NCBI GenBank assembly: GCA_040756035.1
Contig: JBFLZV010000005.1
Coordinates: forward strand, 147 to 64,146
From: Pseudomonadota bacterium
GTDB lineage: Bacteria > Pseudomonadota > Gammaproteobacteria > SURF-13
Reading direction: 5' to 3'
DNA: 64,000 nucleotides
The first letter of the stretch is position 1. Each line of letters begins with the position of its first letter. Made by a program: the position numbers and the translations under genes. This document shows positions 2,950-59,761 of the stretch, one piece after another. A model generated the notes under the pieces. That model saw nothing but the letters and a program-made list of their open reading frames with translations. It was not told the DNA's origin and did no database searches.

Positions 2950-3162
2950 GTGATGACTTGTAACGTTGGCACGGCGGAAAGAGCCGTGCGCATTGTGTTG
3001 GGCATCGCGCTGTTATCCTTGCTGTTTATCCTGGAGGGTAACGCGAAATACTTGGGCCTGTTTGGGCTGGTGCTGCTGGCTACCGCGGCGGTGCGTTGGT
3101 GTCCGGTTTGGGCCCTATTCGGCGTTAACACATGCGGCGCGCAGAAAAAGTCCGCTACCTGA
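2950..3162 (+). CDS. DUF2892 (YgaP C-terminal-like) small inner-membrane protein
   Basis: 70 aa, two TM helices and the conserved C-terminal CPVWALFGVNTCG motif. GGGAGG RBS 6 nt upstream. Confidence 0.5.
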   Translation: MMTCNVGTAERAVRIVLGIALLSLLFILEGNAKYLGLFGLVLLATAAVRWCPVWALFGVNTCGAQKKSAT

Positions 3163-3232
3163 TGACCTAAGGATTGCAGCAAGTTCGCCAAAATCCGGTC
3201 ATAAATTTTATATCACCGTGAATTTAAGCGCC

Positions 3233-4672
3233 ATGCTTAAACAGATTTTGCTCGTCTCTTTGCTTGCTCTGAGCGGCGCAGCGGCCGTGCAGGCCGCCGT
3301 GCCGGATACCGCGCCTGCGTTGTCCGAAAAAATGGTGGGGCGCGTGGATGTCGCCGGTTGGAAGGACGTCTCGTTTCGCGTGAGTCCGGATGGCAAGCGC
3401 TATGCCTACGTGGTGCAAGCAGGCGAGAAGCAAGCGGTGGTGGTGGACGGCAAGCGCGGCAAATTTTACGACGGCATCGGTGAGCACGCCGGGTTTTTCA
3501 GCCCCGACAGCCGCCGCGTGGCGTACGTTGCGTTGAGTAATGGCGCGTGGCGCGTAGTGCTCGACGGCGTGGAGGGACCGGCCTACGACGCCCTATCGAA
3601 TCCGGTGTTCAGCCCCGACAGCCGCCGCGTCGCCTATAAGGCCAAGCTGAACGGTCAAGCGTTCGTGGTGCTGGACGGTAAGCGCGGCGCGCCGTACGCC
3701 GGCTTGGGCACGCGCGAGCAACCCCTACTGTTCAGTTCCGACAGCCGTCGGTTGGCGTATGTAGCCGCGCAGGACGGCAAGGAATTCGCGGTGATCGACG
3801 GGCGGGCCGGCAAGCCTTATGACTTAATCGGCTCGCGCAGCATAGTATTCAGTCCCGACGGCAAGCGTGTCGCGTACCGCGCCGTGCGCGGCGGTTCCAC
3901 CGTGGTTGTCATCGACGGCGAAGAGCATCAGCCGTATCCCGTGATCGGCATCAGCGCGCCGCGCTTCAGCCCCGACAGTCGGAATTTGGTTTACGTCGCC
4001 GGTGACGGCGTCAAGAAATTCGTAGTGCTCAACGGTGAAGAGCAAGCGGCGTACGATGAAGTGCTTACCTTCTCGCCGGTGTTCAGCCCCGACAGCCGCC
4101 GCGTCGCCTACGTGGTCAGGCACGCGGGCAGGGAGTTCGTGGTGGTCGACGGCAAGGAGGGAAAAAAGTATGATCACATCGCGCAGGAAAGCCCGGTATT
4201 CAGCCCCGATAGCAAGCACGTCGCCTACGTCGCCCAGCAGGATGGCAAGGCCTTCGCCGTAATCGACGGCGCGGAAGGCAAGGCTTATGATTACGTCGGC
4301 GAATTGAAACCGTTTTTCAGTCCCGACGGCAAGCGGGTCGCGTACCGCGCCAGCCGTGATGGGAAGATGCGCGTGGTGGTGGATGGCGTTGAGCAGAAAG
4401 AGTACGATGCCATCGGCAACGGCAATCCGTTGTTCAGCCCGGATGGCGAGCATGTCGCTTATCGCGCGCAGGGGGCTCGCGGCGGCGTGGTGGTGGTGGA
4501 TGGCGCCGAGGGCAAGCCTTACGATTTAATCCTGCCCGAAATCAGATTCGATGCGCCGGACCGGTTGCATTACCTGGCGATAAAAAATGACAATATTTAT
4601 TTAGTCTCGCACAAAGCGGTCAGGACAGGCGCGCATGGATTACGCGCAACTGCGCTATTAACTCGGCGATAA
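3233..4672 (+). CDS. secreted tandem-repeat protein: ten ~40-aa repeats (FSPDGKRVAY...VVVDGxEGKxYD), PD40/TolB-like beta-propeller-blade-like
   Basis: Signal peptide MLKQILLVSLLALSGAAAVQAAV. Ten consecutive repeats are visible in protein and DNA (TTCAGCCCCGACAGCCGCCGCGTCGCCTAC recurs). The ORF-track start at 2966 is an out-of-context N-extension overlapping the DUF2892 gene; trimmed to the in-frame ATG 3233. Confidence 0.6.
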   Translation: MLKQILLVSLLALSGAAAVQAAVPDTAPALSEKMVGRVDVAGWKDVSFRVSPDGKRYAYVVQAGEKQAVVVDGKRGKFYDGIGEHAGFFSPDSRRVAYVALSNGAWRVVLDGVEGPAYDALSNPVFSPDSRRVAYKAKLNGQAFVVLDGKRGAPYAGLGTREQPLLFSSDSRRLAYVAAQDGKEFAVIDGRAGKPYDLIGSRSIVFSPDGKRVAYRAVRGGSTVVVIDGEEHQPYPVIGISAPRFSPDSRNLVYVAGDGVKKFVVLNGEEQAAYDEVLTFSPVFSPDSRRVAYVVRHAGREFVVVDGKEGKKYDHIAQESPVFSPDSKHVAYVAQQDGKAFAVIDGAEGKAYDYVGELKPFFSPDGKRVAYRASRDGKMRVVVDGVEQKEYDAIGNGNPLFSPDGEHVAYRAQGARGGVVVVDGAEGKPYDLILPEIRFDAPDRLHYLAIKNDNIYLVSHKAVRTGAHGLRATALLTRR

Positions 4673-4803
4673 AATATATCTCTATATTATTTTGTCGCCG
4701 TCGCCCAGGCCGGTACATGCCCGGCCTGGTCTCTCGCGGCTTAAGGCCGCAGCAAGGCTCCATGCCTTACTCAACTCGGTAATAAGTACCGCTGAGTTAA
4801 TAG
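4658..4803 (+). repeat. MITE-like structured repeat, family 2, copy 1
   Basis: TTAACTCGGCGATAAAATATATCTCTATATTATTTTGTCGCC hairpin, CCAGGCCGGTACATGCCCGGCCTGG hairpin, GCGGCTTAAGGCCGC hairpin, terminal ...CGCTGAGTTAATAG. Near-identical copies at 12143-12288 (inverted) and 45619-45764. Supplies the last 4 codons and stop of the repeat protein. Confidence 0.6.
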
Positions 4804-4840: not shown

Positions 4841-5671
4841 TCAGGCATCCGGCCGCGCGTACGCCGGACACTGCACGCTTGTCCATTCAGGACGGCCGTC
4901 CAGGCGCAGCGCCGTCAATTTACCCCCCCATAAGCATCCGCTGTCCAGTGAATACGCCCCGTCGTCTTCACACGCCCCCAGCGTCGACCAGTGGCCGAAT
5001 AGAATGCGTGCGCCGCGGCTGCGCCGTTCGGGCAACGTAAACCAAGGTCGATACGGCGCGGGCGCGCTGCCGGGCGGCCCTTTTTCCTGCAGCGCCAGGC
5101 AGCCGCGCGCGTCGCAAAAGCGCAGCCGCGTAAAGCAGTTGACGATAAAACGCAATCGTTCCCATCCACCGAGATCGTCCGACCAGCATTGCGGCTGATC
5201 GCCGTACATATGTTGCAAGAATGCGCCATAATTCGGCCCGCGCAACGCAGCCTCGACCTCGGCGGCGCACGCTTGCGCCCGCGCTAAATCCCACTGCGGC
5301 GGCAAGCCGGCGTGGATCAACGTACAGCCCAACGTTTCATCATGATGCAGCAGCGGGCGGCGGCGCAACCAGTCGAGCAGCTCGGCGCGGTCCGGTGCAT
5401 TCAGCACATCGTCGAACGTGTCGCCGGGGCGGCGGTGCTCGCAACCGTGCGCTACCGCCAGCAAATGCAAATCGTGATTGCCCAGCACGGTCACGGCGCG
5501 CTCGCCCAGTCCCTTGACGAAACGCATGACCTCCAGCGAACGCGGCCCGCGGTTTACCAGATCGCCGCAAAACCAAACTTCGTCACGGCGCGCATCGAAG
5601 TCGATGGCCTCGAAAAGCTCGAGCAGCTCATCAAAACAGCCCTGCACGTCGCCGACGGCGTAAACGGCCAT
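4841..5671 (-). CDS. apaH: bis(5'-nucleosyl)-tetraphosphatase (symmetrical), ApaH
   Basis: 276 aa. MAVYAVGDVQGCFDELLELF, GDLVNRGP and GNHD calcineurin-like phosphoesterase motifs. Confidence 0.85.
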   Translation of the reverse strand: MAVYAVGDVQGCFDELLELFEAIDFDARRDEVWFCGDLVNRGPRSLEVMRFVKGLGERAVTVLGNHDLHLLAVAHGCEHRRPGDTFDDVLNAPDRAELLDWLRRRPLLHHDETLGCTLIHAGLPPQWDLARAQACAAEVEAALRGPNYGAFLQHMYGDQPQCWSDDLGGWERLRFIVNCFTRLRFCDARGCLALQEKGPPGSAPAPYRPWFTLPERRSRGARILFGHWSTLGACEDDGAYSLDSGCLWGGKLTALRLDGRPEWTSVQCPAYARPDA

Positions 5672-7036: not shown

Positions 7037-7178
7037 AAATGCCGAGATTTTTTTCAAACCGTCTTCATTCGATTGAACTTTGTCGAAGCTCTGACTCTAA
7101 AATTAATACTAAATAAAGATGCGAGTCGATTGCAAAGCGTTCATTAACGGAGTTCAAATTGTCACGGAGGCGTAATGT

Positions 7179-7487
7179 ATGGATATGAATAAAGAGGAAC
7201 CGGAAAATCGCGGCAAGCGCGGCGGTGAAATAGTCAGTCGTGATCGCGAGCACATGGCGGAGATCGGCCGCAAGGGCGGTAAGGCGGTGAGCCAGAATCG
7301 CCAGCACATGGCGGAGATTGGGCGCAGGGGCGGGGTGACGGTGAGTCAGAATCGCGAACACATGGCGCTTATAGGGCGCAAAGGCGGCGCCACGGTCAGC
7401 CGGGATCGCCGGCATATGTCGGAAATCGGCAAAAGAGGCGGCAGGGCGCGGGGCGGCGCGCACGAGTCGGAAGGACGCGCGCAGTAA
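7179..7487 (+). CDS. KGG-repeat general stress protein (YciG/ConJ-like)
   Basis: 102 aa. Four tandem repeats REHMAEIGRKGG-x-VSxxRxHM. KGG-motif stress proteins are commonly sigma-S controlled. Confidence 0.65.
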   Translation: MDMNKEEPENRGKRGGEIVSRDREHMAEIGRKGGKAVSQNRQHMAEIGRRGGVTVSQNREHMALIGRKGGATVSRDRRHMSEIGKRGGRARGGAHESEGRAQ

Positions 7488-7556
7488 AGGAAAGAAAAGT
7501 GCGGCGTGTTGCCGGTTATCATCGTGCAACAGGCCGCGTTTTTATTGGAGGGCGTA

Positions 7557-8327: not shown

Positions 8328-8664
8328 AATCGTAAGATGCGCGGCGCAGCCGTAGGCGGCCCCGCATAGATGGTGCGCAGGAGTGTGCGCCAACGCCATG
8401 CCAAGGGCGAAATGCGTAAGTATTGAGCAGGCTACACGGGCAAAGCAGCGAAGCTGCCTTGCGGGTGCGCAGGAGGCACACCCGGGACGTTACGCGCAGC
8501 AGGAAGCGCAGCGTAAAAGTAGCCGTGGGCTTTATGCGTAGCCAGGAGGCGCAGCATAGAGGCGTGGTTAAGCCGGCAAGGGCGGCGCAGGAAGCGCGGC
8601 ATTGCCGGCGCTTTTACTGATATCCGGCAATGAATATTACCGGGTTAGTTCCGTGGCGGTGAGA

Positions 8665-10214: not shown

Positions 10215-12020
10215 TTAACCGAGAACGGCGTGATCTTGTTTACGCCGCTCCTCCTGCTGCAATGCCCACATATGAGCATAGACCCTGTCCTGCGTCAGCA
10301 GTTCACGGTGCGTGCCGCGCTCCACGATGCGCCCCTGATCCATCACCAAAATTTGATCGGCGTCGATGACGGTGGACAGCCGATGCGCGATCACCAGCGT
10401 GGTATGGTGCGCCGCCACTTCGCGCAGCGCGTCGAGAATGGCCTGCTCCGATTTAGAATCCAGCGCCGAGGTCGCCTCGTCGAAAATCAAAATGCGCGGG
10501 TCTTTAAGAATGGTGCGCGCGATGGCGACGCGCTGCTTCTCGCCGCCGGACAGTTTCAATCCGCGCTCGCCCACCAGCGTGTCGTAACCGTTTGGCAGGC
10601 TCTCGATGAACTCGTGGATGTGCGCGAGCCGCGCGGCGCGCAGCACTTGCTCGCGGCTCGCCTCGGGACGCGCGTAGGCGATGTTGTAGTAAATGCTGTC
10701 ATTGAACAGCACGGTGTCCTGCGGCACGATGCCGATGGCGGCTCGCAAACTTTTTTGCGTCACGTCGCGGATGTCCTGGCCGTTGATGGTGATGCGCCCG
10801 CGCGTCACGTCATAAAAGCGGAACAATAAGCGCGCCAGGGTGGATTTGCCGGCGCCGCTCGGTCCCACCACCGCGACCTTGTGACCGGGAGGGATGGCGA
10901 AGCTGACGTCGAACAAAATTTGCCGGTTGGCGTCGTAGCCGAAATCGACGTGCTCGAAGGCCACGCGCCCGTCGCCCACCTCGAGCGGCGCGGCGTTTGG
11001 CCGGTCTTGCACTTCGGGATATTGCCGCAGCAGATTGAACATATGCTCCATGTCGGCCAGCGAATTTTTTATTTCGCGGTACACGAAGCCGAGAAAGTTG
11101 AGCGGGATGAACATTTGGATTAAAAACGCATTGACCAGCACCAGGTCACCGAGCGTCATGGTGCCGCGCGTCACCTCGGCGCTGGCCATAATCATCAGCA
11201 CCGTCACGCCCACGGCGATGATGGCGCTCTGCCCGAAGTTGAGCACGGCCAGCGAGGTTTGGTTTTTCACCGCGGCGCGTTCCCACACCTGCATGTTTTC
11301 GTCGTAGCGCCGCGCCTCGTAATCCTCATTGCCGAAATACTTCACGGTTTCATAATTGAGCAGACTGTCAATGGCGCGCGTGTTGGCCTTGGAGTCCATT
11401 TCATTCTTGGCGCGCACGTAGCCCATGCGCCACTCGGTGATGACCAGCGTGAAGCCGACGTACACCAACAGCGCCACGAACGTGACGACGGCGTACCAGA
11501 CGCTGTATTTGGCGAACAGGATGGCCGCCACCATGCCGATTTCCAGCAGCGTGGGCAGGATATTGAACAGCATGAAAGTGAGCAGAAAGCTAATGCCGCG
11601 CGTGCCGCGCTCGATGTCGCGCGACAGGCCGCCGGTTTGGCGCTCCAGGTGAAAGCGCAGCGCCAGCGCGTGCAGATGGCGGAACACCCTGAGCGCCACG
11701 CGGCGGATGGCGCGCTGCGTCACCTTGGCGAACACCGCGTCGCGCAATTCGCCGAACAGGCTGCTGGCCAGGCGCAGCAGGCCGTAGCCGAGCAGCAGCG
11801 CCAATGGCAAAATCAGCACGTCGTGGCGCGCGGCATCCAGGGCATCGACGATTTCCTTGAGCGCCAGCGGCACGCCGACGTTGGCCACTTTCGCCAATAC
11901 CAGGCACGCCATGGCCAGCAGCGCGCGTCCACGGAACTCCCATAAATAAGGAAGCAGGCTGTGGATGGTGGTCCAATCGCCGCGCCCGTCTCTGGGAGTG
12001 GTTGCAGAATAACCGCGCAT
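10215..12020 (-). CDS. ABC transporter permease/ATP-binding fusion, Atm1/HMT1-like exporter
   Basis: 601 aa. N-terminal 6-TM domain. Walker A GPSGAGKST, ABC signature LSGGEKQR, Walker B ILIFDEATSALD. Confidence 0.8.
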   Translation of the reverse strand: MRGYSATTPRDGRGDWTTIHSLLPYLWEFRGRALLAMACLVLAKVANVGVPLALKEIVDALDAARHDVLILPLALLLGYGLLRLASSLFGELRDAVFAKVTQRAIRRVALRVFRHLHALALRFHLERQTGGLSRDIERGTRGISFLLTFMLFNILPTLLEIGMVAAILFAKYSVWYAVVTFVALLVYVGFTLVITEWRMGYVRAKNEMDSKANTRAIDSLLNYETVKYFGNEDYEARRYDENMQVWERAAVKNQTSLAVLNFGQSAIIAVGVTVLMIMASAEVTRGTMTLGDLVLVNAFLIQMFIPLNFLGFVYREIKNSLADMEHMFNLLRQYPEVQDRPNAAPLEVGDGRVAFEHVDFGYDANRQILFDVSFAIPPGHKVAVVGPSGAGKSTLARLLFRFYDVTRGRITINGQDIRDVTQKSLRAAIGIVPQDTVLFNDSIYYNIAYARPEASREQVLRAARLAHIHEFIESLPNGYDTLVGERGLKLSGGEKQRVAIARTILKDPRILIFDEATSALDSKSEQAILDALREVAAHHTTLVIAHRLSTVIDADQILVMDQGRIVERGTHRELLTQDRVYAHMWALQQEERRKQDHAVLG

Positions 12021-12142
12021 AAAAGCACCAAGTATAGGGGAGGGCGGCCGTTACCCGCCGCTGCATTATAGCGTATAATAAACGTTTGACTTTGCCCGTG
12101 TTTGTACGTGGCGCTGTAGCCTTGAAGTTCGAAGATTTATTT

Positions 12143-12288
12143 TATTAACCCGGCGGGATGTATTGCGGGGTTGAGCAAGGCACGGATGCCCTGACGCGGC
12201 CTTAAGCCGCGCGAGACCAGGCCGGGCATGTACCGGCCTGGGCGGCGGCGATAAACTATATGGATATAGTTTATCGCCGAGTTAATAG
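12143..12288 (-). repeat. MITE-like structured repeat, family 2, copy 2 (inverted orientation)
   Basis: The reverse complement matches copy 1/3 modules: CCAGGCCGGGCATGTACCGGCCTGG, GCGGCCTTAAGCCGC, TAAACTATATGGATATAGTTTATCGCC. Lies in the promoter region of fmdB. Confidence 0.6.
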
Positions 12289-12304
12289 CTGTGAAGGTAA
12301 CGCA

Positions 12305-12604
12305 ATGCCTACTTACGAATATCAATGTAATGCTTGCAGTCATCAGTTTGAGGCTCTGCAAAAAATGAGCGATGCGCCGCTCACCGAGTGTCCCGCATGC
12401 GGCAAGCCGCAGTTGCGCAAAATGATGTCGGCCGGCGCGTTCCACTTGAAGGGCAGCGGCTGGTATCAAACCGATTTCAAGAACGCCGGCAAGAAAAAGG
12501 CCGAGGCGGCGGATAAGAAATCGGGAGACGGCGCCGCTCTGCCTACGGCAAGCACCAAGGAAACCGGCGGCGAGGCCAAAACTTCTGCGACTACGGCAGA
12601 GTAG
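12305..12604 (+). CDS. FmdB-family zinc-ribbon protein
   Basis: MPTYEYQCNACSHQFEALQKMSDAPLTECPACG CxxC...CxxC zinc ribbon. The ORF-track N-extension (12260) is a translation of the repeat element; trimmed to the MPTYEY start. Confidence 0.7.
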   Translation: MPTYEYQCNACSHQFEALQKMSDAPLTECPACGKPQLRKMMSAGAFHLKGSGWYQTDFKNAGKKKAEAADKKSGDGAALPTASTKETGGEAKTSATTAE

Positions 12605-12605
12605 C

Positions 12606-13301
12606 GTGTCCACTAAACAACATTCCGGTGAAACAACGTCCACGGTGACGACGCTGCGCCGTTACCTGATCGCCGGCCTACTGGTGTGGCTGCCGCTGGG
12701 TGTCACGGTGCTGGTCATTAAGCTGCTGGTCGACGTGATGGACGGCACGCTGTCGCTGCTGCCCGACGCCTGGCAGCCCGACGCGCTGCTCGGTTTCCAT
12801 TTGCCCGGCCTAGGCGTGGTGCTGTCCATCACCATCGTGCTGGTCACCGGCATGGTGGTGGCCAACCTATTCGGGCGCCGCCTAGTGGAAATTTGGGAAG
12901 GGCTGCTGGCGCGCATTCCACTGGTGCGCTCCATTTATGCGGGTGTGAAGCAAGTCGCGGAAACGCTGTTCTCGCCCGGCGGTCAATCGTTCCGCAAAGT
13001 GGTGCTCATCGAATATCCGCGCCGTGGCCTGTGGACATTGGCGTTCCAAACCGGCAACGGCGTCGGCGAGGCGCAAACACGCACCGGTGAAGATGTGATC
13101 AATGTCTACGTGCCGACCACGCCCAATCCCACCTCCGGATTCTTTCTCATGGTGCCGCGCCAGGACGCGGTGGAGCTGGACATGACGGTGGACGAAGGTC
13201 TCAAGATGATCATCTCCATGGGCGTGGTGGTGCCGGAGTGGCGCAAGCGCGCGCTGATGGTCGGAACATCTTCACGCAAAGACGCAAAGGCGCAAAGTTA
13301 A
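12606..13301 (+). CDS. DUF502-family membrane protein
   Basis: 231 aa. TM segments and conserved VPTTPNPTSGFFLMVP motif. Conserved fmdB-DUF502-aspS gene order. Confidence 0.7.
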   Translation: MSTKQHSGETTSTVTTLRRYLIAGLLVWLPLGVTVLVIKLLVDVMDGTLSLLPDAWQPDALLGFHLPGLGVVLSITIVLVTGMVVANLFGRRLVEIWEGLLARIPLVRSIYAGVKQVAETLFSPGGQSFRKVVLIEYPRRGLWTLAFQTGNGVGEAQTRTGEDVINVYVPTTPNPTSGFFLMVPRQDAVELDMTVDEGLKMIISMGVVVPEWRKRALMVGTSSRKDAKAQS

Positions 13302-15939: not shown

Positions 15940-17061
15940 ATGGCAACTCTGCCGATCAAATCCGATCCCTATTACCAAGACGACCGCGTCTCCGGCAAGA
16001 TGCGCAGGGAATCGCGCGTGCCGAAAACACCGGCGCCGCCGCTCGCGTACCGTGACGAACGTTTCACCGACGAGGTCGCCGCGGCCACGCAGCCGATCTG
16101 GGAGCAAGTGCACGACCTCATCCCCGACGTGGAGTGGCTGCTCAAGGCGCCGCTGATTTATAAAATCAATCAGCTCAAGCGCGCGCGGCGCGCGATTATC
16201 CTGGCGCACAATTATCAAACGCCGGACATTTTCCACGGCGTGGCGGATTTTCGCGGCGACTCGTTGGAGTTGGCGCGGCGCGCCGCGGCGCTGGGGTCGG
16301 ACGAGGCGCCCATCGTGGTGATGTGCGGCGTGCACTTCATGGCCGAGACGGTGAAAATACTCTCGCCGCGGCGCACCGTGCTGATTCCGGACACGGAGGC
16401 CGGCTGTTCGCTGGCCGAGAGCATTACCGGCGCCGACGTGCGCTTGCTGAAGGAGCGTTATCCCGGCGCGCCGGTGGTGAGTTACGTCAACACTTCGGCG
16501 GAAGTGAAGGCGGAGTCGGATTTTTGCTGCACCTCCAGCAATGCGCTGCAAATCGTGGAGGCCGCGGCGCGCGAGTTCGGCGTGCAGCGCGCTATCATGC
16601 TGCCGGACTATTATCTGGCCAAGAACGTCGCGGCGCAAACCACCATCGAGATCATCGCCTGGGCCGGCACCTGCATGGTGCACGAGCGCTTCACGCCGGA
16701 ACAAATCCGCGAGCTGCGCGCGCAGTTTCCCAACGTGCGCGTGCTGGCGCATCCGGAGTGCCCGCCGGAAGTGTGCGCGGAGGCGGATTTCGTCGGCTCG
16801 ACATCGGGCATGATTAGAGACGTGGGCACGTCGGGCGCGGCCAAGGTGGTGATGATCACCGAATGCGCGATGGCCGACAACGTCGCCGCCGCGCACCCCG
16901 GCGTGGACTTCGTGCGCCCCTGTGTGTTGTGCCCGCACATGCAACGCATCACGTTGGCGAAGATTCTAACCTGCCTGGAAACCTTGCGGCCCGAAGTTCA
17001 CGTCGCGCCCGACGTCGCCGCGCGCGCGCGCCGCGCCGTGGAACGGATGCTATCGGTGTAG
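15940..17061 (+). CDS. nadA: quinolinate synthase A
   Basis: 373 aa. ILAHNYQ, VMCGVHFMAETVKIL, CTSSNALQIVE, MVHERF motifs and Cys ligands for the [4Fe-4S] cluster. Confidence 0.9.
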   Translation: MATLPIKSDPYYQDDRVSGKMRRESRVPKTPAPPLAYRDERFTDEVAAATQPIWEQVHDLIPDVEWLLKAPLIYKINQLKRARRAIILAHNYQTPDIFHGVADFRGDSLELARRAAALGSDEAPIVVMCGVHFMAETVKILSPRRTVLIPDTEAGCSLAESITGADVRLLKERYPGAPVVSYVNTSAEVKAESDFCCTSSNALQIVEAAAREFGVQRAIMLPDYYLAKNVAAQTTIEIIAWAGTCMVHERFTPEQIRELRAQFPNVRVLAHPECPPEVCAEADFVGSTSGMIRDVGTSGAAKVVMITECAMADNVAAAHPGVDFVRPCVLCPHMQRITLAKILTCLETLRPEVHVAPDVAARARRAVERMLSV

Positions 17062-17128
17062 GGTGGGCACGTTGTTTGTGCCCACCGGTCAAGATTACGC
17101 GTGGGCACAAAAGGCGTGCCCACCCTAC
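17058..17128. repeat. REP-like palindromic doublet (GTAGGGTGGGCAC ... GTGCCCACCCTAC) between convergent nadA and an SDR gene
   Basis: Two hairpins GTGGGCAC-N-GTGCCCAC nested in an outer 13-bp inverted repeat. Related single unit at 31238-31266. Likely a bidirectional terminator or REP element. Confidence 0.5.
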
Positions 17129-17826: not shown

Positions 17827-17945
17827 GAGAAAAACTCCTTTACTTTATGGAAGCCCTGAAATTCCATCCTAACGCTACGCAATCCTGCTACGCTTGGATA
17901 CCGGGGTTTGCTCTTCATGGCAAACCCACTTGCCGTGTCGCGGCG

Positions 17946-18075
17946 CGCCCATGAAATTTTCAGAGACGAAAGAACAAAAAATATGATTTTTTTCTTAATT
18001 TTCAATTTTTTATGTAATTGAAAAATGGCGATGCATCCCTGCATCGCAGGAATCTCTGAGTAACTCAGAGATTCC
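17946..18075. repeat. Modular palindromic intergenic element, family 1, copy B
   Basis: Modules P5 (half)-P4-P3-P2-P1: GCGATGCATCCCTGCATCGCAGG hairpin and GGAATCTCTGAGTAACTCAGAGATTCC 27-bp palindrome. Abuts the CBS gene stop. Confidence 0.6.
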
Positions 18076-31237: not shown

Positions 31238-31266
31238 AGGGTAGGGTGGGCACGGTTTTTGTACCC
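31238..31266. repeat. REP-like single unit (GTAGGGTGGGCACGG ... CGTGCC) between queE and queC
   Basis: Shares the GTAGGGTGGGCAC core with the doublet at 17058-17128. GGCACG/CGTGCC stem. Confidence 0.35.
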
Positions 31267-31296
31267 ACGTGCCGTCTTACCGTTACCTAACCTTTT

Positions 31297-37048: not shown

Positions 37049-37216
37049 ATCACTACTCTTGACTTACCTTGATGGGGGAGCTAAGTTAGCAAGCACGAAC
37101 TGATAAATTACATTATGAAAAATATGTATCGTTAGCTTAACACTTCGCCGCAACACTCGGCGGGCTCAGCGCGTATAGCCGGTCCGCTTACCGATGAACG
37201 AATTTTCATATGGATA

Positions 37217-45618: not shown

Positions 45619-45764
45619 TTATTAACTCGGCGACAAAATATATCCCTATATTTTGTCGCCCTCGACCAGGCGGTACCTGCCCGGCCTGGTCTCGCGCGGC
45701 TTAAGGCCGCGTCAAGGCATCCGTGCCTTGCTCAACCCGGCAATAAATCCCGCCTGGTTAATAT
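45619..45764 (+). repeat. MITE-like structured repeat, family 2, copy 3
   Basis: TTATTAACTCGGCGACAAAATATATCCCTATATTTTGTCGCC, CCAGGCGGTACCTGCCCGGCCTGG, GCGGCTTAAGGCCGC, terminal CGCCTGGTTAATA. Sits between the GH gene start and the wzx stop. Confidence 0.6.
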
Positions 45765-45771
45765 TCCACGG

Positions 45772-47355
45772 TTACCATACGATCCAGTTACGGCCTATGA
45801 AGCGGTTTAGCAGCGCTCTCTCGGAAGGCAGGAAAGGTTTCCAGAGGTATCCGAAGAGTAAAAACAGCCCGACGGTGGCAAGTCCGGCCAGCAAGGAGCC
45901 TATAAGACCCGGAATTAATAACGTTATGGAGGCGCCCAGTATTCCGGATGCCAGGGCAAGCACCATGATGCGGACGATGCCTTGCCAGTGCGGATGATAA
46001 GGATGGTTTTTCGCGCGCAGCCGCTTTACGATGTATACGTTTTCAAACCATGCAATAAGCAATATGCCGGCTAACATTCCGGGCAGGCCGTACAGCAGCA
46101 TGGCGGCGATTTGCAGCATCCCCGCCAGCGAAGCCCACAGGTTGGCCACAAGCAGCAGCCAACTTTCCTCCACGGCGTTGAGTATGAGTTTCAAGACTAG
46201 CCCGTGACTGTAAAACATCAGGCTCACCATTAGTCCGGTAAGCAGCCACACGGTGTTCGTATATTTCCCCGCGGTAATGAAGTCGATAACGGGAGCGCCG
46301 CATAGGGCGAGCCAAACGGTGGCCGGCGCAAGCACAAAGAGGTTGATCTTTACTATGATAGAACCCATTTCGTTGAGGGTGGAAAACTCGCGCCGCTCGG
46401 CGTAGCGGGCCATGAACACGGGTTCGATAAGGCCCAGCATTAGAATGGCGGGCAGGTAGTTCCGCATCATTCCGGTAATGGCGAAAGCAAAACCCAGAGC
46501 CGCGGTTTGAATGCTCCCTAAATAGGCGGCGCTGATCAGTTTCATAGTGTTGGAGCTGACGATCAGGCCGATCAAATTTGGAAGATAATTGTGCCAGCCG
46601 AAGCGCCATAAGCGTGCCGGAGAAATATCAAATCTTTTTGCGGCGGTATCCGTGCTCTTAAATAAGCCGAGATGGGCGTGCAATATAACCAGCATATACA
46701 ATGCGGCCAAGCTGACCGCGATGGTTTGCACCCGCACCACTTGCATAAGCGACAGACCGCCCATCAAGGCGAGTATCAGCAGCAAGGCCGCCAATTTGGT
46801 GAGCCACTCCAGGGCCATGGCGCGCGTGGCGTTCCTTTGCAACAACAGGGCTTGCAAAGTACGGGATAGATGAACCGCTATGCACGCAAGGAAAATGTAC
46901 AGTGCGAAAGGCCATATCACGTTGCTGTGGTTGTCCAGTGACAGGAAACCGGAAATGGAATCCGAGAACAGCAGTATCGGAATAAGTGCGACCCCTATAA
47001 AAATCGCGCGCAGTCCAAGAAGTTTCCATGATAATCCGGCTAGCTGGGCTTCCGCTCTTTGCGTTCTAAGGGCGGGGAGAAATTTTGGGATAACGCGATC
47101 CAGGCCGCCGTCGCTGATGATTCCGAGCGTAACGAGCAGGCCGGTCAGGGCCGTGTAGGCTCCGTAGGTCTCCACCGGCAGAATACGAACCAGCAGAATG
47201 GCCACGGTGAACGACACAATGGCGGTCATGCCGCGTCCCAGAAGATAATGCCACATGCTGGCGCGAACCTTTCTGCCGCTGTAGTAGGATGTTTTTGACA
47301 TTGAAATTGCGTCGGCGGATTTTTCCATAACGAATAATGTGCTTCCTTTTGGCAT
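45772..47355 (-). CDS. wzx: Wzx-type polysaccharide flippase (MOP superfamily)
   Basis: 527 aa (start may be the internal MEKSADAISM at 47328), ~12-14 TM helices. Confidence 0.7.
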   Translation of the reverse strand: MPKGSTLFVMEKSADAISMSKTSYYSGRKVRASMWHYLLGRGMTAIVSFTVAILLVRILPVETYGAYTALTGLLVTLGIISDGGLDRVIPKFLPALRTQRAEAQLAGLSWKLLGLRAIFIGVALIPILLFSDSISGFLSLDNHSNVIWPFALYIFLACIAVHLSRTLQALLLQRNATRAMALEWLTKLAALLLILALMGGLSLMQVVRVQTIAVSLAALYMLVILHAHLGLFKSTDTAAKRFDISPARLWRFGWHNYLPNLIGLIVSSNTMKLISAAYLGSIQTAALGFAFAITGMMRNYLPAILMLGLIEPVFMARYAERREFSTLNEMGSIIVKINLFVLAPATVWLALCGAPVIDFITAGKYTNTVWLLTGLMVSLMFYSHGLVLKLILNAVEESWLLLVANLWASLAGMLQIAAMLLYGLPGMLAGILLIAWFENVYIVKRLRAKNHPYHPHWQGIVRIMVLALASGILGASITLLIPGLIGSLLAGLATVGLFLLFGYLWKPFLPSERALLNRFIGRNWIVW

Positions 47356-55574: not shown

Positions 55575-55725
55575 GGAAACTCTGAAAATTCCATCCATGG
55601 AATTTTCAGAGACGAAAAACGAAAATGTGTTTTCGTTTCTCTTCATTTTTCAATCGCCCGAAGCGATTGAAAAATAGCGATGCATCCCTGCGCTGCAAAA
55701 TCTCTGAATAAATTCAGAGATTTCC
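55575..55725. repeat. Modular palindromic intergenic element, family 1, copy D (P5-P4-P3-P2-P1, inverted relative to copy C)
   Basis: CTCTGAAAATTCCATCCATGGAATTTTCAGAG perfect palindrome, GAAAAACGAAAATGTGTTTTCGTTTCTC, TTTTCAATCGCCCGAAGCGATTGAAAA, GCATCCCTGCGCTGCAA, AATCTCTGAATAAATTCAGAGATTTCC. Abuts the wzz stop. Confidence 0.65.
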
Positions 55726-59094: not shown

Positions 59095-59577
59095 TTAAGC
59101 CAATCCGAGCTTGGGCGCCGACCTGGCGCTGCGACGTAACTGATAAGCGATCAAACCCAACCCCACCAACAATAACGCCCACTCATGGGGCTCGGGTACG
59201 GGGGGTACAGGAACCGTACCTTCAAAGATTAATGATTTTCCTAATACACCGGCAAAATGGTTGCCGCTTCCGTTGGCTCGGAATATAAAACTTCCGGGAC
59301 CTTCATGGCTTCTTATAATGTTGTAGCCGCCGTTACCGTTGCTTGTCCCGACCCAAAAACCTAAAAACGTACGCGCGGGATTATAATTAGTGACGGTTAG
59401 CTTAACTTCGTAAAGACCATCCAGGTTGCCCACGTTAAAGTCACTGTTAATGATCTTCCAGATGTTTAGCTTGACAGTGTTTGAGTGATGTGAATTGTTT
59501 GCAGCTTGCGCCGTGCCGGCGAGTGAAATGAACAAACTTACAATAACTGCTTTCCATAGCATGTTCGTTTTATTCAT
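59095..59577 (-). CDS. PEP-CTERM sorting-domain protein (exosortase substrate)
   Basis: 160 aa. Signal peptide. C-terminal VPEPHEWALLLVGLGLIAYQLRRSAR = PEP motif + TM helix + basic cluster. Confidence 0.8.
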   Translation of the reverse strand: MNKTNMLWKAVIVSLFISLAGTAQAANNSHHSNTVKLNIWKIINSDFNVGNLDGLYEVKLTVTNYNPARTFLGFWVGTSNGNGGYNIIRSHEGPGSFIFRANGSGNHFAGVLGKSLIFEGTVPVPPVPEPHEWALLLVGLGLIAYQLRRSARSAPKLGLA

Positions 59578-59634: not shown

Positions 59635-59761
59635 AGTTAACAAGGCAATGATTTTTTTATAGTTTTTATAAAATTTTTTGGATTTTAAAATAAATATGTA
59701 TCGTTATATTTACAAATAAAGCCGAGCTTGAGGAAAAAGCCCTACAGTAAAAACAAAATGA

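Follow-up and report, generated by a model that had tools for sequence, protein, structure and literature searches.

A dispersed five-hairpin repeat with inverted ends in a gammaproteobacterial chromosome

How does one short, non-coding sequence come to stand at three places among the genes of a single bacterial chromosome? The question is raised by a 64,000-nucleotide (nt) stretch of a Pseudomonadota genome (Gammaproteobacteria, lineage SURF-13; contig JBFLZV010000005.1, positions 147 to 64,146), which is referred to below as the window. It carries three dispersed copies of an element of about 145 nt. An earlier interpretation, made from the letters alone and here termed the sequence-only reading, had described it as a miniature inverted-repeat transposable element (MITE). 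We compared the copies with one another, with the corresponding loci of relatives, and with similar sequences in genome and metagenome collections. The element is best explained as a miniature mobile repeat that is non-autonomous and, in a broad sense of the term, MITE-like, with an enzyme of the DDE/TA kind as the best guess; we put the probability of this explanation at roughly 55%.

Copies, ends and hairpins

Copy 1 (positions 4656-4802, plus strand, 147 nt) lies between a PD40-repeat gene and a convergent Metallophos gene, copy 2 (12143-12287, inverted, 145 nt) in the divergent spacer between an ABCB transporter gene and fmdB, and copy 3 (45620-45763, plus strand, 144 nt) in the spacer between a wzx-like gene and a glycoside hydrolase (GH) gene. 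Their pairwise identity is 84-90% (blastn E values 2e-41 to 8e-53; the window has 58.7% GC), and the central 29-mer of the element had no match in 100 shuffles. The sequence-only reading had placed three copies, about 85-90% identical, within 1-2 nt of these positions. Neither a profile hidden Markov model (nhmmer) nor a covariance model detected a fourth copy in the window, where a fuzzy search with the end motif described below returned the six ends of the three copies and, besides these, chance-level near matches. The homology among the copies ends sharply at TATTAAC on the left and at GTTAATA on the right. Within these limits the coding frame is broken between copies by one- and three-base indels; the reading frame is not conserved, coding for a small peptide was therefore rejected, and the element is non-coding. 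Its central 23-24-mers had no exact match in genome contigs and none in metagenome contigs. The ABCB protein of the window likewise had no exact match in the collections, its closest homologue being 88% identical.

Each copy is bounded by TATTAACTCGGCG...CGCYNRGTTAATA. All three copies have the same left inverted end, TATTAACTCGGCG (4656-4668 in copy 1, 12275-12287 in copy 2 and 45620-45632, plus strand, in copy 3). The right end lies at 4790-4802 in copy 1 (CGCTGAGTTAATA), at 12143-12155 in copy 2 and at 45751-45763 on the plus strand in copy 3 (CGCCTGGTTAATA). Read as reverse complements, the right ends are TATTAACTCAGCG, TATTAACCCGGCG and TATTAACCAGGCG, and the motif that left and right ends share is TATTAACYCGGCG. 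The inverted ends are 13 nt long and differ by one or two mismatches in every copy. They are thus the imperfect terminal inverted repeats of the sequence-only reading, which had also given them a CGCCNGG consensus from which the right end of copy 1 departs.

Ends with AAC and GTT at inverted positions, on an element within the size range of attC, recall an integron attC-type site or another hairpin recombination site. However, TATTAAC and GTTAATA match the RYYYAAC and GTTRRRY boxes at five of seven positions each, and the stem is continuous, with neither an unpaired spacer nor extrahelical bases. The copies, moreover, are separated by 7-33 kb, differ in orientation and lie among housekeeping genes and not cassettes, and the window contains no integrase. 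On box, stem, arrangement and integrase alike an attC site was rejected, and we consider recombination sites of this class a very improbable explanation.

Every copy forms five hairpins, whether folded as DNA or as RNA; the three recognized earlier (H1-H3) are real, and two more, H4 and H5, follow them. H1 (4665-4699 in copy 1, 12247-12278 in copy 2 and 45629-45660, plus strand, in copy 3) has a 14-bp stem, GGCGACAAAATATA / TATATTTTGTCGCC. It starts GGCGAYAAAMTATA, its first four stem bases belong to the left end, and it is the most widely conserved module. H2 lies, in the same order of copies, at 4705-4729, 12217-12241 and 45666-45689 (plus strand in copy 3, as for the hairpins that follow), where it is formed by CCAGGCGG..CCGGCCTGG, also written CCAGGCCGG...CCGGCCTGG. 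H3 (4736-4750, 12195-12211 and 45695-45711) reads CGCGGC-TTAAG-GCCGCG in copy 3, and H4 (4754-4768, 12177-12192 and 45713-45730), with the reported motif CAAGGCATCCGTGCCTTG, reads CAAGGCA-TCCG-TGCCTTG there. H5 (4771-4800, 12145-12174 and 45732-45761) is formed by pairing between an internal motif, TCAACCCGGC, and the right end, GCCTGGTTAA. This internal motif (TCAACCCGGCA) repeats the end motif for a third time, in the same direction as the left end. Since H1 and H5 share no sequence relationship, an element of the IS200/IS605 type was rejected.

Empty sites and a wider family

Seven syntenic relatives, with ABCB proteins 80-88% identical to that of the window (L001, which is the same contig as L003, L002, L039/L040, L041, L042 and L043), allowed the copies to be viewed at orthologous positions. 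The site of copy 1 is empty in all seven: three relatives have convergent genes with an overlap of 4 nt, and in the others the distance between these genes is 47, 66 and 117 nt, compared to 168 nt in the window. The site of copy 2 is empty in the seven as well, with spacers of 131-248 nt versus 284 nt in the window, and in a multiple alignment of this site the extra DNA of the window coincides with the element. The covariance model detected no full copy in about 100 kb of DNA from these relatives. In L001 a degenerate fragment comprising H1 and H2 (nhmmer E value 2e-6) is located just downstream of ABCB, where the window has a spacer of 18 nt. Because the sites of copies 1 and 2 are empty and this fragment stands where the window has an 18-nt spacer, the family comes and goes in this clade, i.e., it is gained and lost there. 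The sequence-only reading had staked its mobile interpretation on empty sites in relatives and on further copies; both were found, the latter as family members in other genomes (L006, L011, L026 and L029).

These members were identified with a pattern fitting H1 of all known instances, which was scanned against genome and metagenome contig collections and yielded 25 loci. The loci related to the element were L003, L006, L011 and L026. Most of the others proved to be intrinsic terminators in Psychrobacter or Saprospiraceae, and the rest represented an unrelated 31-bp palindrome on high-GC soil contigs. This perfect palindrome, GGCGACAAAATAGACSGTCTATTTTGTCGCC, occurs with unrelated flanks on seven soil or rhizosphere metagenome contigs (L014, L016, L019-L022 and L027) and shares the H1 arm GGCGACAAAATAGA with elements of the Marinagarivorans type, described below.

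In L006, a Pseudomonadota metagenome-assembled genome (MAG) of 62.5% GC, the element is 115 nt long and consists of H1, H4 and H5, H2 being absent (covariance-model score 103 bits). L026, a 198-kb contig of 49% GC that is Marinagarivorans-like by protein search, carries a 173-nt version in the order end-H1-H2'-H3-H4-H5-end (98 bits), together with a 105-nt variant and two solo hairpins of 36 nt, i.e., four members in 13 kb. In L011, a Marinagarivorans MAG, one end-H1-end hairpin and one solo were found. Seven members lie within 21 kb of L029, a syntenic locus of this Marinagarivorans-like group: two full copies in opposite orientation (89 and 68 bits), two solos, an internally deleted copy, a truncated copy and a fragment. 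The density of members in Marinagarivorans-like DNA thus approaches one per 3 kb, with two of those in L029 (L029-B and L029-C) only 16 nt apart. The syntenic contig L028 has no members at the places where L029 carries copies, in a comparison that is not base-exact.

Copies of the window type and of the Marinagarivorans type are 59-69% identical. In the latter, H2 is swapped for a longer, different hairpin. The end motif persists in genomes whose GC content ranges over 49-62%, those of marine Cellvibrionaceae having 49-50%, and the interior modules are swapped or deleted. The solo consists of the end motif inverted around a 10-nt loop, in which ACTAAAnnnn is conserved as it is in H5, and H5 is homologous to the solos of L026, L029 and L011. 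In these three, palindromes of the size of repetitive extragenic palindromic (REP) sequences (20-40 nt) are thus present in extragenic DNA; in the window no 36-nt solo was found, only the form of about 145 nt.

The family also leaves its mark on assemblies. In nine independent assemblies of the L029 species the contig terminates 31 nt inside one copy, the behaviour expected of an assembly graph that branches at a high-copy repeat, and the ten contigs of this species are identical wherever they overlap and simply break in the repeat. The contig ends concerned (L030-L038) fall at the same base, 130 nt after a DUF5610 gene. Metagenome assemblies can therefore be seen to break at this repeat, nine of them at a single base for one Marinagarivorans-like species. 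Searches of other collections were negative: the elements of the window and of L026 had no BLAST match in a plasmid collection, the solo hairpin had no match among viral contigs, the end motif gave chance primer matches only in full-text literature, and the literature on Marinagarivorans contained nothing on repeats.

These features fit a mobile type of element: it is small and non-coding, has sharp inverted ends, obeys no rule of orientation, is present or absent at a given site, is abundant in some genomes, and joins conserved ends to a variable interior. From them we infer mobility and, with it, the class of enzyme and a duplication of TA. The 13-nt inverted ends (TATTAACYCGGCG) would be the recognition sites of a transposase encoded elsewhere in the genome, by which the cassette may have been inserted, in this lineage, at three places between genes or at gene ends. 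Our best guess is a transposase of the conventional DDE type, which binds the ends and duplicates TA, possibly one similar to IS630/Tc1; under TA duplication the element proper would be TTAAC...GTTAA. Use of the left and right end motifs would move the whole cassette, and use of the internal and right end motifs would move the H5 hairpin alone; movement by the latter pair would therefore explain the 36-nt solos of relatives.

Conserved hairpins and competing readings

The five-hairpin structure was tested on seven full copies, with 500 shuffles and with pairing partners slid by 1-3 columns as controls. In these copies 86% of the cells are paired. Ten pairs have changes on both sides, a number reached by none of the 500 shuffles and compared to 0-3 in the slid controls. 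Three of the compensatory changes affect pairs of H1 and four affect pairs of H4, whose loop is kept while its stem is altered in other lineages; the rest of the signal comes from H5, where the right end changes in step with the internal motif (T/A in copy 1 as opposed to C/G in copies 2 and 3). The loop of H3, like that of H4, is conserved across lineages. G.T and A.C mismatches number 10 and 8, with no strand asymmetry, and therefore nothing points to one RNA strand. In the seven-copy alignment RNAalifold preferred a 12-bp closing stem between the two ends, and the right end can therefore pair either locally, in H5, or with the left end. On these few sequences, in which templated correction of quasipalindromes may also operate, the test shows that the hairpins are maintained and does not point to one cause.

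One candidate cause is host selection of a cis-acting structured element at the RNA level, e.g., an mRNA stabilizer, processing site, terminator or insulator. All copies probably form part of transcripts (the PD40 mRNA at its 3' end, the 5' untranslated region (UTR) of fmdB and the wzx-GH spacer), although their transcription is something that we infer. Folding is very stable on both strands, with RNA folding energies of -66 to -76 kcal/mol and z-scores of -6 to -8.5 on either strand. The ten compensatory pairs, the loops of H3 and H4, and the greater conservation of the elements of L026 and L029 relative to flanking coding DNA are also consistent with a function in RNA. On the other hand, the copies are oriented either way with respect to transcription, G.U pairs are not biased towards one strand, and quasipalindrome-templated correction can mimic compensatory change. 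Promoter and terminator scans around the copies gave nothing above chance, with no T-tract terminator, and for this reason the element was dropped as a source of promoters or intrinsic terminators; an independent small RNA gene was rejected as well. No Rfam family matched around the copies at gathering or permissive thresholds (best E value 0.09; 10-24 bits, compared to thresholds of 35-90), and only a tRNA passed in the window. Finally, the same genes lack the element in seven relatives and therefore do not need it. Selection for an RNA function thus appears unlikely.

A more serious alternative, possible though still tentative, is a REP-like palindrome, or bacterial interspersed mosaic element (BIME), that moves as single-stranded DNA with the help of a RAYT/TIRYT-type tyrosine (HUH) transposase. 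Such an enzyme would recognize the hairpin foot TATTAACCCGGC/GCCGGGTTAATA, which closes the 10-nt loop in the solos; in the form of 145-175 nt, the paired left and right ends would close a large structured 'loop' of H1-H4. The solos with their conserved ACTAAAnnnn loops and homology to H5, the REP-like density and clustering of members, the co-variation that keeps H5 paired in copy 1 as in copies 2 and 3, and the closing stem preferred by RNAalifold all argue for it. The compensatory changes of H1 and H4, being without strand bias, suit DNA hairpins that are usable on either strand. REPs are defined by a GTAG or CGTC tag, and tyrosine-transposase genes flanked by untagged inverted repeats, which form moderately abundant families, have also been described (Di Nocera et al. 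2013, PMC3733652). The latter description also speaks for such an enzyme. What speaks against it is that neither tag is present at the TATTAAC and GTTAATA ends, that none of the loci examined contained a recognizable Y1 transposase gene, that the window itself is devoid of solos, and that H1 and H5, in contrast to the paired end hairpins of IS200/IS605, have unrelated sequences. In addition, the window has a classical GTAG-tagged REP doublet of its own; the TATTAAC element is therefore a separate family, and a second, different enzyme would be required.

A broader conjecture, which we regard as rather doubtful, is that the five-hairpin cassette and the solo together form an untagged REP-like system common to distant Gammaproteobacteria (a 59%-GC soil lineage, the 62%-GC MAG and 49-50%-GC marine Cellvibrionaceae), a system whose single-strand structure is kept by purifying selection and which depends on an unrecognized hairpin-binding enzyme or host factor. 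If true, this would be a second partnership of the REP/RAYT type in a genome that already carries a GTAG REP family.

The preferred explanation, a mobile repeat with a DDE-type enzyme, has to be weighed against several observations that tell against it. The relatives, at 80-88% protein identity, are too diverged for empty sites to be defined to the base, and the three copies were counted within the 64-kb window only. No direct repeat is visible outside TATTAAC...GTTAATA, where the sequence-only reading had suggested looking for target-site duplications in the TTA/TAA flanks; the sole candidate for a duplication is the TA (or TTAA) inside the palindrome, which is inseparable from the element's own ends. 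TA does flank every intact end, except that the right-hand TA is missing from one solo, L026c. Neither the roughly 58 open reading frames (ORFs) of the window nor the 26 ORFs checked in L006, L011 and L026 included a gene for a transposase, an integrase or a Y1 enzyme, and the autonomous partner that had been expected was found neither in the window nor in 11 related loci. The 36-nt solos are unusually short for MITEs of the DDE type. A plain element of that type needs no compensatory changes, such as those that keep H1, H4 and H5, nor does it require that the copies of L026 and L029 be 89-93% identical when the surrounding coding DNA is 75-82% identical.

Several hallmarks of MITEs are nevertheless present, i.e., small size, lack of coding capacity, multiple copies, terminal inverted repeats (with the motif recurring in L006, L011, L026 and L029) and presence or absence at orthologous sites, the last in comparisons that are not base-exact. 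The 'MITE architecture' proposed from the sequence alone is accordingly apt as far as dispersal, lack of coding, inverted ends and hairpins are concerned; with no target duplication visible outside the palindrome and no partner transposase found in these loci, the term MITE in its strict sense may be an overstatement. End-binding and hairpin-recognizing mechanisms account equally well for the long form and the solos.

Several known families are similar in kind. ERIC/IRU sequences of Enterobacteriaceae and Vibrio are imperfect palindromes of about 127 bp, with TA reported at insertion sites. The element is like them in its size class and its inverted ends, in lying between genes in either orientation and probably being co-transcribed with them, in its presence or absence between relatives, and in its occurrence in several genera, but it has no sequence similarity to them, and ERIC is one long imperfect palindrome whereas the element has five hairpins and an internal end motif. 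Correia/NEMIS elements of Neisseria (104-155 bp, with 26-bp terminal inverted repeats and TA duplication) are likewise miniature, non-coding and bounded by TA-flanked inverted ends, can alter the transcripts of neighbours, and have no partner transposase known nearby. In contrast, the ends of the element are 13 nt rather than 26, its sequence is unrelated, no IHF site was identified in it, and its interior hairpins are independently conserved. RIME, the Rhizobium-specific intergenic mosaic elements, have several palindromes in 100-plus bp; the element shares the intergenic mosaic organization, similar size and restriction to some lineages, but RIME belong to another phylum class and are unrelated in sequence, so this comparison is one of kind only. 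With REP/BIME/REPIN-RAYT systems and the untagged TIR/TIRYT families, the element has in common palindromic 36-nt solos, density and clustering, extragenic location, a BIME-like mosaic of hairpins and their compensatory upkeep. It differs from them in lacking the GTAG/CGTC tag and an inverted doublet of identical hairpins, and in that no Y1 gene was found.

As judged by these descriptions, the element resembles ERIC, Correia, BIME and RIME in kind and none of them in sequence. The kind of element is ordinary, and the wider family in Gammaproteobacteria is apparently undescribed so far. Its unusual points are the internal third end motif, the 36-nt solo form, the compensatory changes in interior hairpins and the spread over genomes of 49-62% GC. 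It is a reasonable object of study, not a new kind of system. The family, in which a single end motif bounds a hairpin of 36 nt as well as a mosaic of 90-175 nt, is a tractable case for the spread of small palindromic repeats, and its partner enzyme, if found, could show whether untagged palindromes move by DDE or HUH chemistry.

Neighbouring genes and other repeats

The window represents ordinary chromosome. Pfam searches of its ORFs identified DHFR, aspS, nadA, ruvCAB, tolQRAB-pal, queC, queE, a sulfate-activation gene, an exosortase/exopolysaccharide (EPS) cluster and type II secretion genes, and a tRNA-Lys is also present. Relative to the adjoining genes the copies are found sense, antisense and upstream.

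Copy 1 enters the PD40-repeat gene (2966-4672, plus strand, 568 aa), which is convergent with the Metallophos gene (4841-5671, minus strand). Its first 17 nt provide the last five codons (L-L-T-R-R) and the TAA stop (4670-4672, plus strand) of this ORF. The sequence-only reading had seen that the stop comes from the element and had counted four codons; its general statement that the element provides gene 3' ends holds for copy 1 and not for the other two. Removal of the element together with one TA would give the ORF the tail ...ATALVKGRKSV* instead of ...ATALLTRR*, so that the new stop and five-residue tail may be a by-product of insertion. Upstream of the copy, the PD40 gene contains at least eight units of 111-123 nt with 60-97% identity (3491-4468; repeat families D1 and D2), in agreement with its earlier description as a repeat protein.

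Copy 2 lies 122 nt from the ATG of the ABCB transporter gene (10215-12020, minus strand) and ends 17 nt before the ATG (12305) of fmdB (Zn_ribbon_8; 12305-12604, plus strand). A TATAAT hexamer that faces fmdB (12074-12079, plus strand) is located outside the element, 63 nt upstream of it, and is conserved in seven of seven relatives; a consensus promoter scan did not call it. If this hexamer serves as the -10 box of fmdB, copy 2 falls in the 5' UTR of that gene; it is more likely situated there than in the promoter, where the sequence-only reading, correct as to position, had placed it. As a by-product, 145 nt of strong hairpins would thus be included in this probable 5' UTR.

Copy 3 lies 8 nt after the stop of the wzx-like gene (45772-45774, minus strand) and fills 144 of the 177 nt between that stop and the probable start of the GH gene (45594), the location given by the sequence-only reading; both genes are on the minus strand. 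It lies 10 nt before the first GH ATG and 25 nt before the ATG that begins a signal peptide, and is antisense to the transcription of both genes; strong hairpins would here become part of the wzx-GH intercistronic RNA. Two ORFs, 45653-45997 (plus strand) and 12137-12643 (minus strand), had been dismissed as just translations of the element. They are indeed spurious and have their starts within the element, but for the most part run antisense through real genes. For annotation, the element explains these two ORF calls, the odd C-terminus of the PD40 protein and the unusually long fmdB and wzx-GH spacers.

Other repeats occur in the same DNA. A weak H5-like hairpin, ATCCGGCAATGAATATTACCGGGTTAG, lies between convergent genes at 8615-8650 and resembles H5 of L006; it is not significant (covariance-model E value about 1) and could be a decayed solo. 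The GTAG-tagged REP-like hairpins, GTAGGGTGGGCAC-N7-GTGCCCAC, form an inverted, REPIN-like doublet between the nadA stop and a convergent SDR gene (17058-17085, plus strand; 17101-17128, minus strand) and a singleton after queE (31241-31268, plus strand), with four matches in the window compared to 0 expected by chance. They are probably the 'first' dispersed element of the sequence-only reading. In L028, a Marinagarivorans-like genome free of the TATTAAC family, another GTAG-core repeat, AAAATGTAGGCAGCGAAGC...CTGGCTAG, occupies the corresponding spacers (1580-1650 and 11410-11470). A third dispersed repeat of the window, about 130 nt long and 76% identical between its copies (17940-18075 and 55590-55725, each between two minus-strand genes), has the conserved blocks CCATGRAATTTTCAGAGACGAAA, ATTGAAAAATRGCGATGCATCCCTGC and TCAGAGATT. 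Four tandem 54-nt units (7221-7436, 69-74% identity) lie inside the overlapping ORFs 7065-7529 (minus strand) and 7179-7487 (plus strand), neither of which has a Pfam match. Finally, an AT-rich 30-mer, TTATGAAAAATATGTATCGTTAGCTTAACA, recurs with 63-80% identity at 37113-37142, 59378-59407 and 59685-59714. It is situated ahead of the sulfate-activation gene and close to an ORF of 160 aa that adjoins the EPS cluster and has no Pfam match, and may represent a shared regulatory site.

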